The notes below the pieces were generated by a model, which saw nothing but the letters and a program-made list of their open reading frames with translations, was not told the DNA's origin and searched no databases. From Kiritimatiellia bacterium (lineage in GTDB: Bacteria; Verrucomicrobiota; Kiritimatiellia; RFP12; DVOR01), in contig CAAGNN010000052.1 of the NCBI GenBank assembly GCA_900771325.1, forward strand, positions 5,155-69,154: a stretch of 64,000 nt of DNA. Direction: 5' to 3'. Each line of letters begins with the position of its first letter. The first letter of the stretch is position 1. This document shows positions 2,951 to 11,309 of the stretch, in pieces. A program made the position numbers and the translations under genes.

Positions 2951-3946
2951 TCAGCCGCGGGGATGCGCCGCATGATAGGTCTCAATCAGGCGCTCGGGGG
3001 CGAGGTGGGTGTAAATCTGCGTGGTCTCCGGGGAGACGTGGCCGAGGAGCTCCTGCACCGCGCGCAGGTCGGCCCCATGCGAGAGGAGATGCGTGGCAAA
3101 GGAGTGGCGCAGCTTGTGCGGAGTAAGGTCCGCCGGCAACCCGGCCACGGCCAGCCAGTGCTTCATAAAGCGCTCAATCGAGCGCGTGGTGAGCCCCCCA
3201 CCCTGCTGATTGCGAAAGAGCCGCCCCTGCGGCGCAAGGGCGTCGGCCCACAACCCGCGCGCGGCCATCAACATCTCCCCCAACGCCAGGAGCGCGGGCC
3301 GGCCCAGCAGACAAAGCCGCTCCTTATCGCCCTTGCCAATCACGCGTACCGAGGCGGCGGCAGCATCCACCTGGCGGATCTCCAACGCCGCCGCCTCCGC
3401 CACGCGCATCCCCGTGCAGTAAAGCACCTCGAAGAGCGCGCGGTCGCGCAAGAGCGCGTAGTGCGCGAGCGGCTCGGCGGGCCCGCCGGCGGCCGCCTCC
3501 GCCCGGAGCGCCTCGCGCGGCGCAGCTAGGAAGCGCTCGACCTCCGCCTCGCTCAGCAGCCGCGGCAGCACCTTCTCGCGCTTCGGCGGACGCAGCCCGG
3601 CAAAGGGCGAGTTCGGCAACACCCTCTCCACCACCAAGAAATGGAAGAAGGCCCGCAGGGCCGCCAATTTCCGCGCCGTCGAGCTCGCCTTGGCCGCCGT
3701 CCGCGCGTAGTGGTTGAGAAACTGCTTGGCATCGGCGCGCACCACCTCGCCCCACTGGAAAGGCGGCGGCTCCTCGCCCCAGAAGAAGGTGCAAAACTGC
3801 CCCACATCGCGCACATAATTGGCCACCGTGTGCCGACTCGCGCGCTTCACCCCCCGCAACCACACCACAAAGTCCCCCACGCGCGCATCGTCTAGCACCC
3901 GACTATGCGCGCGAAAGGTCTCCAACGTATGCTGATTAGCACCCAT
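2951..3946 (-). CDS. tyrosine site-specific recombinase, XerC/XerD family
   Basis: N-terminal SAM-like core-binding domain; C-terminal catalytic region with …[10 protein letters not shown]…[24 protein letters not shown]… (R-H-R-Y motif context). Start chosen at MGANQH, because the longer ORF start at 4039 runs into the tandem repeat. Confidence 0.8.
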
Positions 3947-4000
3947 CGCGCCCCTAGTATAGCACAGCCCACAACCAACCGCCGACCGCGACAAACGCCG

Positions 4001-4108
4001 ACCCGCCCCGGGTCCAAGGTCAACCCGGGGCGAGTCCATCTCGAACCCGGGGCGGGTCGGGGGTCAACCCGGGGCGGATTCACCTCGAACCCGGGGCGGA
4101 TACACCTA
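4001..4108. repeat. A-family tandem array (about 5 units of a 21-22-bp repeat containing CCCGGGGCGG)
   Basis: …gtcaacccggggcgagtccatctcgaacccggggcgggtcgggggtcaacccggggcggattcacctcgaacccggggcggatacacc. Every unit contains a CCCGGG core. Confidence 0.85.
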
Positions 4109-4282
4109 AGAGCTGGTCTATACACTGTTTCCCCCTGCCCATCCGTTAGGGCACACGCATTAAGTCCGAGCATCTCGAGGAACCACGTCAATGTAGTCAA
4201 CCGAGCGTGGTTAACGGCTGACGAGCGCCGCAAGCGGCCCACCCTTCTCTGGAAGTTCCCGGGATAAGGGCACTATTAAACG

Positions 4283-4366
4283 ACCCTTTAATTGCACCAG
4301 TAAGCTGTGCATAAGTATATCAAAAGTCGAGACACAGGGTTGTCGATATTAAAGGGTCCTTTAATT
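4283..4366. promoter_or_regulatory. pair of about 25-bp AT-rich direct repeats upstream of the island operon (candidate operator / promoter region)
   Basis: tattaaacgaccctttaattgcacc and tattaaagggtcctttaattgaacc about 60 bp apart. They contain the TTAATTG core shared with the AT-rich 22-bp units elsewhere. A TATAT-like -10 lies between them. The downstream gene starts at 4428. Confidence 0.4.
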
Positions 4367-4427
4367 GAACCGGGCTGGCGCGGTTAAGTTTCCAACTACA
4401 CGAGGCGTTGCAAGAAGAGGATAGGTT

Positions 4428-9737: not shown

Positions 9738-9930
9738 CAGAAGCCTCCTCTCTAAGCCGTGAACAGCGACAACAACAGTATAGCAGAATATCGAACACCG
9801 TGTAATGCACCCCCACCCGACTCGCTCCGCTCATCAGCAAACAACCAACAAGTCCGCAGGAACGATACCATCGCCGATAGCGCACCTCCGCGACGAAGGA
9901 ACGGGAGGTGAGACGAGGAGACACTCCCCC

Positions 9931-10385
9931 CACCCGGGGCGGATGCGAGGTCAACCCGGGGCTGGTCGAGGGGCAACCCGGGGCGGATGCGAGGTCAACC
10001 CGGGGCGGGTCGGAGGTCAACCCGGGGCGGGTCGGAGGTCAACCCGGGGCGGATTCACTTCGGACCCGGGGCGGGTCGGAGGTCAACCCGGGGCGGGTCC
10101 ACCTCGAACCCGGGGCGGATTCACTTCGGACCCGGGGCGGGCGGCCTGGCGGAGCAGGCCGGTGCACAACGCTTACCCTCGCAACGCGCCGAAGGCGCAC
10201 CTCACGCGAGCGCAGCGAGCCCCTCACGCGGGCGGCAGCCCGCACCTCGCGCGAGCGCAGCGAGCACCTCACGCGCCGAAGGCGCACCTCACGGCCCGGA
10301 GGGCCACCTCGCGCGGGCGTAGCGAGCACCTCTCGCGAGCGTAGCGAGCTTACCGCGCACCGTTCGCGCACCGTTCCACCGTGGT
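9931..10385. repeat. composite repeat mosaic: A-family array (about 10 units) + B-module (GGCCTGGCGGAGCAGGCC…GCTTACCC) + C-module (CACCTCACGCG / GCGAGCGYAGCGAGC repeats)
   Basis: cacccggggcggatgcgaggtcaacccggggc… repeated to about 10143. Then ggcctggcggagcaggccggtgcacaacgcttaccc, then gcgccgaaggcgcacctcacgcgagcgcagcgagc… iterated. The same three-module order recurs at 19662-19860. Confidence 0.85.
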
Positions 10386-10449
10386 CGGTTGACTTTTCGG
10401 GCGTAAGCCTATATTATTACGGTGTTTTGATGGTCACTCAAGGAATGTT

Positions 10450-11217
10450 GTGATGGATTCGATTACGGTTGGCATTATCGGCTGCGGCTTTATCGGCAGC
10501 GCGCTGAAGATTTGGCTCGAACGGAATAACCCCGCCGTTAAGGTGCTGGTCAGCGATCCGCCCAAGGGGATGAATGACGACCTTTCGAGCGCGGATGTCT
10601 ACTTCCTGCAGATCCACGTTCCCACCGAAGATGACGGTACGCAGGATCTCACCTTGATGAAGCAGCTCATCTGTGCCTTGCCCGCCGGCAAGCCCATCTT
10701 TGTGCGCACCACGATTCTTCCGGGCACTTCCGCGCGCCTGACCGAAGAGACCGGCCACCCGGTTTACTTTATGCCCGAGTTTCTCACCGAGCGCACCTAT
10801 ATCGAGGACTTCCAGACCCAGCCGATGGTTTTCACCGGCGAGATTGACCTCCTCTCCAAGATCTTCAAGGGCAAGAAGTTCTGCCGTATGACCTCCCTTG
10901 AGGCCGAGATTACCAAGTACGCCCACAATGTCTTCGGGGCGCTCAAGGTGACCTACTTTAACGCGGTTGCCGACTACTGCCGCCGGATGGGGGCCGACTT
11001 CGCCAATGTCCACACCGGCTGCCTCCTCTCGGGCTACATCAACGAGACCCACACCCAGGTCCCCGGCCCCGATGGTAAGTTCGGCTATGGCGGCAAGTGC
11101 TTCCCGAAGGATGTTAACGCCTTTGCCGACCTCACCAAGGATCTCCCCCTTGGGAAGCTCCTCGCGCCCCTTCACGAGTTGAACGTCCTCTTCCGCGGCA
11201 TCGAAGAGCACCTCTGA
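10450..11217 (+). CDS. short UDP-glucose/GDP-mannose 6-dehydrogenase-family protein (NAD-binding + central domain; C-terminal UDP-binding domain absent)
   Basis: IGCGFIGSAL Rossmann motif; catalytic-Cys motif GGKCFPKD near the C-terminus. Only 255 aa. TTGACT-N16-TATATT promoter and an AAGGA RBS upstream. Confidence 0.55.
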   Translation: MMDSITVGIIGCGFIGSALKIWLERNNPAVKVLVSDPPKGMNDDLSSADVYFLQIHVPTEDDGTQDLTLMKQLICALPAGKPIFVRTTILPGTSARLTEETGHPVYFMPEFLTERTYIEDFQTQPMVFTGEIDLLSKIFKGKKFCRMTSLEAEITKYAHNVFGALKVTYFNAVADYCRRMGADFANVHTGCLLSGYINETHTQVPGPDGKFGYGGKCFPKDVNAFADLTKDLPLGKLLAPLHELNVLFRGIEEHL

Positions 11218-11225
11218 CCCCTTTC

Positions 11226-11309
11226 GCCGGAATGGTGGAATGGCAGACACAGCGGACTTAAAATCCGCAGCCGCAAGGCGTAGGGGTTCGACTCCCCTTT
11301 CCGGCACCA
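11226..11309 (+). tRNA. tRNA-Leu (anticodon TAA)
   Basis: Cloverleaf: acceptor GCCGGAA/TTCCGGC; anticodon stem GCGGA/TCCGC with loop CTTAAAA; long variable arm AGCCGCAAGGCGT; T-loop TTCGACT; 3' ACCA. Confidence 0.85.

Follow-up and report, generated by a model that had tools for sequence, protein, structure and literature searches.

We analysed a stretch of 64,000 nucleotides (nt), hereafter the window, from a bacterium of the Kiritimatiellia, with attention to a block of low GC content that lies between a gene for a Xer-type tyrosine recombinase and a short Ugd-like gene followed by tRNA-Leu(TAA). An earlier note on this DNA had taken the arrangement for the footprint of a genomic island targeted to the tRNA gene. 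The window has a GC content of 66.6%, and it comes from a relative of Candidatus Spyradenecus (Lentisphaerota/Kiritimatiellae-type) with about 67% GC. The closest relative of the recombinase protein comes from a metagenome-assembled genome of Candidatus Spyradenecus sp., which the NCBI taxonomy places in Lentisphaerota (89% amino acid identity), followed by Kiritimatiellae/Lentisphaeraceae genomes at 51-60%; the sample records of same-species contigs carry the label gut metagenome. Labels such as L001, L081, L094, L106 and L109 denote the metagenome contigs or loci compared with the window. The features of the locus are listed below, where aa stands for amino acids, GC3 for the GC fraction at third codon positions, ORF for open reading frame and TRF for Tandem Repeats Finder.

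1783-2874, plus strand: dus, tRNA dihydrouridine synthase, a core gene and the left-hand context (Pfam Dus 9.7e-53; GC3 0.87)
2951-3946, minus strand: XerC/XerD-type tyrosine recombinase, 331 aa (Pfam Phage_integrase and Phage_int_SAM_1)
4003-4107, plus strand: most likely the proximal half of a composite A-family repeat element, namely a 31-bp palindromic head (4003-4033) and four 22-bp A units (TRF, array 4009-4107)
4108-9930, no strand: low-GC cassette of about 5.82 kb, most likely inserted (composition; own promoter regions at both ends)
4275-4365, no strand: two AT-rich palindromes, ATTAAACGACCCTTTAAT and ATTAAAGGGTCCTTTAAT, 5' of the cassette operon (inverted repeat I12, 18-nt arms, 94% complementary)
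4428-6236, plus strand: fusion protein, 602 aa, with a LicC-like nucleotidyltransferase domain and a pyridoxal phosphate (PLP)-dependent phosphoserine/threonine-decarboxylase-like (CobD-like) domain (Pfam, NCBIfam, PDB)
6246-7424, plus strand: DUF1015 protein, 392 aa, putative serine kinase (Pfam DUF1015 1.4e-56)
7428-8455, plus strand: opine (octopine/nopaline) dehydrogenase-like gene, broken (ORFs 7428-7868 and 7781-8455; Pfam Octopine_DH 3.5e-27 for the second ORF)
8466-9737, minus strand: GT-B-fold protein, 423 aa, of an uncharacterised family, putative glycan-modifying transferase (AlphaFold2 and Foldseek)
9931-10349, plus strand: most likely the distal half of the composite element, namely some 9.5 A units (9931-10140), then the conserved tail (10141-10189) and, at 10190-10349, 22-bp units of the C family (TRF, A array 9932-10141)
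10453-11217, plus strand: short Ugd-like dehydrogenase, 254 aa, made up of a Rossmann and a central domain and lacking a C-terminal one (Pfam UDPG_MGDP_dh N-terminal and central domains)
11226-11309, plus strand: tRNA-Leu(TAA) (ARAGORN; Rfam tRNA 60.4 bits)

The block at 4108-9930 stands apart from its surroundings in composition. In 500-bp windows it has a GC content of 0.49-0.59, the flanks one of about 0.67-0.72, and its five ORFs (4428-9737) have GC3 values of 0.63-0.66, which correspond to z = -7.3 to -8.3 relative to the 38 other genes of the window (0.887 ± 0.031). The Ugd-like gene, with a GC3 of 0.81 (z = -2.4), stands at the edge of the native range and outside the block, and the recombinase gene lies within that range (0.84, calculated for a longer ORF, 2951-4039). 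These values bear out the low-GC module that the earlier note had described. The cassette is compositionally foreign and was very probably acquired horizontally, and its foreign composition together with its absence from the corresponding positions of the closest relatives supports calling it an island in a loose sense only.

No mobility gene was found in the cassette with Pfam, NCBIfam, PHROGs, PADLOC and Foldseek on the cargo; in PHROGs only the fusion protein matched (two families of unassigned function, and no integrase or mobility family), and PADLOC gave no defence-system match for any cargo protein. A comparison of 4100-9930 with phage and plasmid DNA returned no match. Between the two edges (4100-4430 against 9738-9935) there was no direct repeat of 8 nt or longer and no target-site duplication was seen, and the one 8-nt inverted match is at chance level. 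The two palindromes 5' of the cassette operon look like operator sites, and the same type of palindrome occurs three times upstream of the homologous operon in L106.

Tandem arrays border the cassette at both ends. As the earlier note had it, the left array belongs to the A family (4009-4107) and the tyrosine recombinase gene lies next to it; on the right, however, only 9931-10141 is of the A family, and 10190-10349 belongs to a different family, C. The A core AACCCGGGGCGG (12 nt, at most 1 mismatch) has 45 matches in the window against 1.4 expected, distributed over at least 8 intergenic regions. In a GC3-guided gene map, nearly every long promoter-bearing intergenic region carries A units and none occur between convergent genes. 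Because of this ubiquity, A arrays on both flanks of the cassette are not beyond chance, and they lose the meaning of island brackets that had been given to them. Composite repeats lie in the long promoter-bearing intergenic regions at 4003-4107, 9931-10349, 19400-19860, 30587-30683, 34425-34614, 40560-41165, 49117-49373 and 55402-55455, and AT-rich palindromic arrays of a B family (22/23-bp units) are often found in or beside A runs.

The two arrays next to the cassette differ in anatomy. The window holds six 31-bp heads, all 12-7-12 palindromes of the form CCGCCCCGGGTT-N7-AACCCGGGGCGG and always in the same arrangement, from which the A units run outward; one of them is the head at 4003-4033, CCGCCCCGGGTCCAAGGTCAACCCGGGGCGA. 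A single-strand DNA fold of 3995-4110 gave z = -4.2, and arrays outside the head region had no excess structure. On the distal side of the cassette there is no palindromic head, and the A units are followed by a tail of about 45 bp and then by C units. The same order emerges when 10107-10300 is aligned with 19684-19870 and with 40640-40833 as its reverse complement; the last of these, read in reverse, is the uninterrupted arm used for comparison, and the arm at 19.4 kb aligns in the tail and C-unit part. With 4110-9930 taken out, the 22-bp repeats on the two sides stay in phase (4088 + 22 = 4110). Because a head with four A units stands on the left, headless A units with tail and C units stand on the right, and the phase is kept, the simplest reading is that the two arrays are most likely the halves of one composite element split by the cassette. 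We infer this insertion from the anatomy of the element rather than from observation of the event. As halves of one element, the arrays would not be duplicated attachment (att) sites. An arm of the same type, at 19.4 kb, is broken up by AT-rich arrays of the B family, about 200 bp in all, and two B-like palindromes also lie upstream of the cassette operon.

Comparison with relatives sets the limits of the lineage-specific part. In L001 (about 96% nt identity), homology ends at window position 3984 and resumes at 30783, so that a 22-bp array of another kind comes after xer and, after this array, the homologue of the window gene 30748-32091, with no cassette. In L109 (about 92.5% nt identity; ClpB 98%), homology starts at 11428, the gene upstream of clpB encodes a CotH domain, tRNA-Leu is missing, and the secA block, which in the window lies at 41 kb (24 kb away), comes after clpB-galK-pgm. 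Since homology ends at 3984 in the one and starts at 11428 in the other, 3985-11427 is lineage-specific. L111 (ClpB 91%) carries a GH97 gene upstream of clpB, and the more distant L002-L005 share only xer with the window. No empty site joining dus to tRNA-Leu was found among the relatives' xer locus (L001) and clpB loci (L109-L114), each of which joins different neighbours.

The array in the xer-upstream region of L001 (L001:5741-5815) is a 22-bp array of a different family, TAGGCCCTACCTCGGGTCGACC, compared with those at 3985-4108 and 30587-30683 of the window. Because the genes of L001 are about 96% identical and its array family differs, turnover is much faster in the arrays than in the genes. 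The order of gene blocks varies between genomes of 92-96% nt identity; the synteny breakpoints against L001, L109 and L110 fall at 3984, 11428, 16904, 30783, 34325, 41164 and 55829, five of the seven in array-bearing intergenic regions.

It is conceivable that the repeats take an active part in such insertions. A recombinase or transposase would then recognise the heads or unit runs of A elements, perhaps the Xer-type enzyme next to the cassette, acting in an integron-like way or in the manner of integrative mobile elements exploiting Xer (IMEX), and cassettes and gene blocks would be gained and shuffled at these sites. A-unit runs enclose the cassette and, at another place, the B arrays (19.4 kb), the heads share the geometry of tyrosine-recombinase core sites, the Xer-type gene lies 57 bp from one head, and the breakpoints against L001 and L109 fall largely (5 of 7) in array-bearing regions. 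However, hardly any long intergenic region is free of arrays, and breakpoints and insertions would meet them by default; the Xer protein has no integron-integrase features (115.7 bits against a cutoff of 265); neither a dif-like motif nor a target-site duplication was found; arrays outside the head region show no excess single-strand structure; and the junction array in L001 is of another family. We therefore hold site-directed insertion of this kind to be unlikely. The more general proposal that A-family composite elements are the preferred docking or recombination sites of this lineage for cassettes, B-family arrays and gene blocks, possibly through a tyrosine recombinase acting on the heads, is likewise unlikely; if true, it would explain the differing block order at array-bearing regions between genomes that are 92-96% identical in their genes.

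Two known systems are instructive for this question. Repetitive extragenic palindromic sequences and bacterial interspersed mosaic elements (REP/BIME) are likewise GC-rich palindromic units clustered in intergenic regions, with foreign DNA inside a run of units, and their units are preferred insertion targets, for example of IS1397, which enters BIME palindromic units. The units of the window differ in forming 22-bp tandem runs that start from a 31-bp head and continue into a conserved tail and a second repeat family, and the inserted DNA is a gene cassette without a transposase, where no search was aimed at transposases of the REP-associated tyrosine transposase (RAYT) type. The likeness to integrons and IMEX lies in a recombinase gene of the Xer family that is divergently oriented beside a palindromic repeat and a cassette. 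Unlike in those systems, the recombinase scores far below the integron-integrase cutoff, no dif-like site was found in the window, and the recombinase-dus pair is conserved without the cassette; the blocks between the arrays are multigene and include core genes such as clpB and secA, which sets them apart from attC-type cassettes.

The genes of the cassette point to a common pathway. The fusion protein matched NTP_transf_3 (7e-16), NTP_transferase and Aminotran_1_2 in Pfam and CobD in NCBIfam (1.4e-58), and its matches in the PDB were a threonine-phosphate-decarboxylase-like protein (6oux, 4e-50), which is probably a serine-phosphate decarboxylase of norcobamide synthesis, CobD (1lc5, 4e-35) and LicC (1jyk, 1.3e-8). 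The N-terminal domain also matched the PntC-type fusion 6pd1 (3e-8), in agreement with a LicC-type cytidylyltransferase. The next gene encodes the DUF1015 protein, a family proposed to be serine kinases (SerBK) on the basis of complementation, fitness data and structural similarity to SbnI (bioRxiv 10.1101/2024.10.14.618325, preprint). The opine-dehydrogenase-like gene carries a 1-nt deletion, located by alignment near 7762. Since the surrounding stretch, 7761-7900, does not vary among five independent assemblies and L106 has an intact homologue (342 aa), this is a real pseudogene or split gene and no sequencing error.

The last cargo gene, on the opposite strand, encodes the 423-aa protein, for which Pfam, NCBIfam, PHROG and PADLOC gave no match, nor did sequence and profile searches against the PDB. 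It has 2113 homologues, some of them fused to RgpF, GT2, methyltransferase or GNAT domains. The AlphaFold2 model (mean predicted local distance difference test, pLDDT, 96.2) was matched by Foldseek to GT-B folds of the UDP-N-acetylglucosamine 2-epimerase type (1e-10, TM score 0.5-0.67), and the protein is, by this model, a putative transferase and no recombinase. No LicD-type phosphotransferase was found in the window, so the GT-B-fold protein is the transferase candidate here.

According to these assignments, the DUF1015 kinase would phosphorylate serine to phosphoserine, the CobD-like domain would decarboxylate phosphoserine to phosphoethanolamine, and the LicC-like domain would activate the latter to cytidine diphosphate (CDP)-ethanolamine. 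In intact versions, the opine-dehydrogenase-like enzyme may yield an N-(1-carboxyethyl) derivative, and the GT-B protein would finally transfer the group to a surface polysaccharide. We infer this biochemistry from the domains, their neighbours and published analogues, by which the cassette probably adds a phosphoethanolamine-type substituent to a surface glycan. Two precedents make the pathway plausible: Cj1436 of Campylobacter jejuni converts phosphoserine to phosphoethanolamine for capsule synthesis (PMC12409886), a reported decarboxylation that matches the CobD-like PLP domain of the cassette, and N-(1-carboxyethyl)ethanolamine phosphate is a known substituent of Proteus O-antigens (PMC9630907).

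The nearest parallel in gene organisation is the Lic pathway of phosphocholine decoration (LicA kinase, LicC cytidylyltransferase, LicD transferase), which like the cassette combines a kinase-like, a LicC-like and a transferase function in one small cluster. In contrast to the Lic pathway, the head group would come de novo from serine and not from uptake, the kinase is DUF1015 instead of LicA, decarboxylase and cytidylyltransferase are fused, the transferase in the window is the uncharacterised GT-B protein and not LicD, and there is an extra opine-dehydrogenase-like step, broken here. Things of this type are already known, and the cassette is a further example.

Homologues of the cargo give some indication of its origin. 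The fusion protein has at least 8000 homologues in a database search; identity is 100% within the species and 88% to L106, followed by a gap down to 51-55%, where the named homologues among the matches listed are all Bacteroidales (Prevotella, Xylanibacter and Muribaculaceae). L106 is a polysaccharide gene cluster of 49% GC with 78% nt identity to the window over 4.0 kb (the first three cassette genes), and the homologous genes there neighbour GT2 glycosyltransferases, an acyltransferase and a Wzx-type flippase. In L107 (a Xylanibacter ruminicola-type contig, 10001-16076), the gene after the fusion gene encodes an opine-dehydrogenase-like domain fused to LicD, with a flippase gene two genes on; among the matches listed from gut and rumen Bacteroidales, the fusion gene often precedes such an opine-dehydrogenase-LicD fusion and a flippase. 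Being so common and in such company, the fusion gene points to a widespread, uncharacterised pathway of glycan decoration.

Taken together, we consider it probable that the block is a cassette for glycan decoration, gained by horizontal transfer and lying within an intergenic repeat element that was there before it, and that the housekeeping Xer gene and the tRNA gene are only its neighbours. The cassette would most likely have arrived by horizontal transfer and then recombined into a repeat-rich, promoter-bearing intergenic region, where it would have been kept long enough for its GC3 to drift up toward that of the host and for one gene to decay. The GC3 of 0.63 in the window against 0.51-0.53 in the L106 copy is consistent with such partial drift. 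Several points weigh against this interpretation. Synteny around the locus is scrambled among the relatives, so that the empty-site comparison is not a clean one, and an uninterrupted xer-element-ugd site was found in no relative examined. L106 could itself be a relative that inherited the cassette, and the lineage may have carried the cassette from ancient times, with losses in other branches. Finally, with the opine-dehydrogenase-like gene a pseudogene here, the pathway may be partly inactive.

Part of these points would also fit a native, vertically inherited surface-glycan locus of atypical composition that the relatives lost or moved, with neither transfer nor insertion. Just two close relatives were examined and synteny is scrambled in both, every same-species contig recovered over this stretch carries the cassette, and AT-rich palindromes of the host's own B-family type stand 5' of its operon. 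However, the GC3 of the cassette is 7-8 standard deviations below that of the 38 neighbouring genes, next to a near-native Ugd-like gene; the 88% match is followed by the gap to 51-55%, where the few named matches among those listed are all Bacteroidales; and the cassette interrupts an otherwise contiguous repeat arm. We therefore regard vertical inheritance as improbable.

The recombinase gene beside the cassette has the properties of a core gene. A longer ORF (2951-4039) runs into the array, and the start at 3946, which is the gene call of independent assemblies, is the likely one. XerC (284.5 bits) and XerD (269.7) are the best-scoring NCBIfam families, ahead of the integron integrase (115.7) and the phage-type integrase_1 (18.2), yet both remain below their equivalog cutoffs (335 and 330), as does PRK00283 (265.6 against 279), and the protein is accordingly classified from its sequence as Xer-type without a subtype. 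The two integron-integrase models were not reached (115.7 against 265 and 73 against 435), so it is not assigned to the IntI type. Its best PDB match is Escherichia coli XerD (1a0p, 5e-46, near full length), with phage integrases at 1e-10 or worse; a SAM-like N-domain and the catalytic domain are present, and the six catalytic residues R-K-H-R-H-Y all align with 1a0p. Among 542 confirmed relatives, identity falls with taxonomic distance, from 89% in Candidatus Spyradenecus sp. through 51-60% in Kiritimatiellae/Lentisphaeraceae to mostly 28-44% in the remaining loci. The dus-recombinase pair is syntenic in L001 (about 96% nt identity; recombinase 89% in amino acids) with no cassette beside it. 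Because it is XerC/XerD-like and conserved beside dus in L001 without the cassette, the recombinase is, as far as sequence can tell, the core housekeeping Xer-type enzyme of chromosome dimer resolution and not island-borne. A search for dif-like motifs gave 2 weak matches in the window against 1.5 expected, none above chance.

On the other side of the cassette, the Ugd-like gene and tRNA-Leu probably make up a separate small transcription unit of near-native composition that has no part in the cassette. A sigma-70-like promoter is predicted at 10389-10417, 5' of the Ugd-like gene, and a terminator-like hairpin follows tRNA-Leu at 11320-11351; the Ugd-like stop codon is 8 nt from the tRNA, and the mRNA and tRNA may be co-transcribed. 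The nucleotide-sugar dehydrogenase ORF (UDPG_MGDP_dh) is present as the earlier note had reported, but it is not truncated: it is a full-length member of a conserved two-domain family of about 251 aa found in many Kiritimatiellae-type metagenome-assembled genomes, whose proteins do without the C-terminal domain that canonical UDP-glucose dehydrogenases have. Of its 2034 homologues, the best 120 have 249-265 aa and are 74-85% identical, apart from a same-species match of 98%; an exact look-up matched the 254-aa ATG form and not the 255-aa form with a GTG start. Homologues in L089, L091, L092 and L104 occur in varied contexts, namely between ribF and serS, in glycosyltransferase clusters and next to a hexokinase gene. 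L104, the one contig measured, has 47% GC against 67% in the window, and conservation of the Ugd-like protein is unusually high.

The tRNA-Leu(TAA) gene likewise lies beyond the right array, at 0.85-1.3 kb from the arrays or the module edge and not at the 1.5 kb given before. In Rfam only the tRNA passed over the window; a Gut-1 match within the C array stayed below the threshold (27.7 bits, threshold 50) and was discarded. The earlier failure to find a direct repeat of the tRNA 3' end holds for the whole window: for 11197-11340, on both strands, the longest exact match has 11 nt, no more than chance would give, and neither 16-mers (up to 1 mismatch) nor 25- or 30-mers (5 or 7 mismatches) recur. 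Among contigs with the same tRNA-Leu 5' half (L117-L122), none has an adjacent Ugd-like gene, and only L119, whose tRNA is identical, matches the window. The tRNA gene is a bystander and no attachment site.

The earlier proposal of an integrative island targeted to tRNA-Leu, with the Xer-type recombinase as its integrase and the arrays as att borders, drew on the presence of a block of foreign composition, a tyrosine recombinase and a tRNA gene all within 8.4 kb, a likeness shared with P4-type islands. A tRNA-integrating element of the P4 type or a similar type lies 3' of the tRNA that it rebuilds, and its far border bears a copy of the tRNA 3' end. In contrast, the block here lies on the 5' side of the tRNA, not adjacent but 1.3 kb off and behind a near-native gene with its own promoter, and has neither a tRNA-derived direct repeat in the window nor a mobility gene inside. 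The recombinase, on the far side from the tRNA, has XerC and XerD as its best families, an affinity named beforehand as speaking against an island integrase, and it stands beside dus in a relative without the module. Moreover, the arrays belong to a genome-wide family and together most likely form one split element, and tRNA-Leu is not linked to clpB in L109 and L111 or to the Ugd-like gene in L119. The island footprint is therefore abandoned as very improbable.

Five metagenome contigs, independent of one another, run across the xer-cassette junction, at least 8 contigs from independent assemblies encode the identical 602-aa cargo protein, and contig L081 equals window 1-10188 at 99.9%, overlapping with L094 from the same sample (window 10122-14396, running through clpB) on the unique tail sequence 10122-10188. 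Because of this junction coverage and this overlap, an assembly chimera, in which a low-GC segment of another organism would have been joined at the repeats, is hardly credible, even though short-read assemblies break at the right-hand arrays.

Two further observations concern neighbouring regions. The region upstream of clpB (about 11400-11481) has several GTGGCAC motifs together with a near-consensus sigma-54 -24/-12 element, TGGCAC-N5-TTGCA (about 11466-11481), which suggests that clpB expression is sigma-54-dependent; a close variant stands at the same place in L109 (9840-9960) and a weaker TTGTA form in L111 (9860-9960). Paired inverted arrays of 7-bp repeats lie at gene ends at 1718-1865, 2796-2939, 15357-15503, 32833-32976, 48873-48991, 49379-49499 and 55194-55375. 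With arms such as CAGCCGA x5 and CGCTGTC x4.6 that are 94% complementary and spacers of roughly 65-100 nt, they could form long hairpins.

For annotation, these results remove a false mobile-element call, as the proximity of a Xer gene, a tRNA gene and a low-GC block does not amount to an integrative island. A cassette that interrupts a structured repeat element points to a route of gene gain in this uncultured lineage, although this is unproven. The cassette is a compact and widely distributed gene set. It suggests a testable path by which serine would be turned into a phosphoethanolamine-type decoration on surface glycans, possibly into an N-carboxyethyl-ethanolamine-phosphate decoration in its intact versions, and DUF1015 would gain a second physiological context. 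Such decorations shape the recognition of gut bacteria by hosts and phages.

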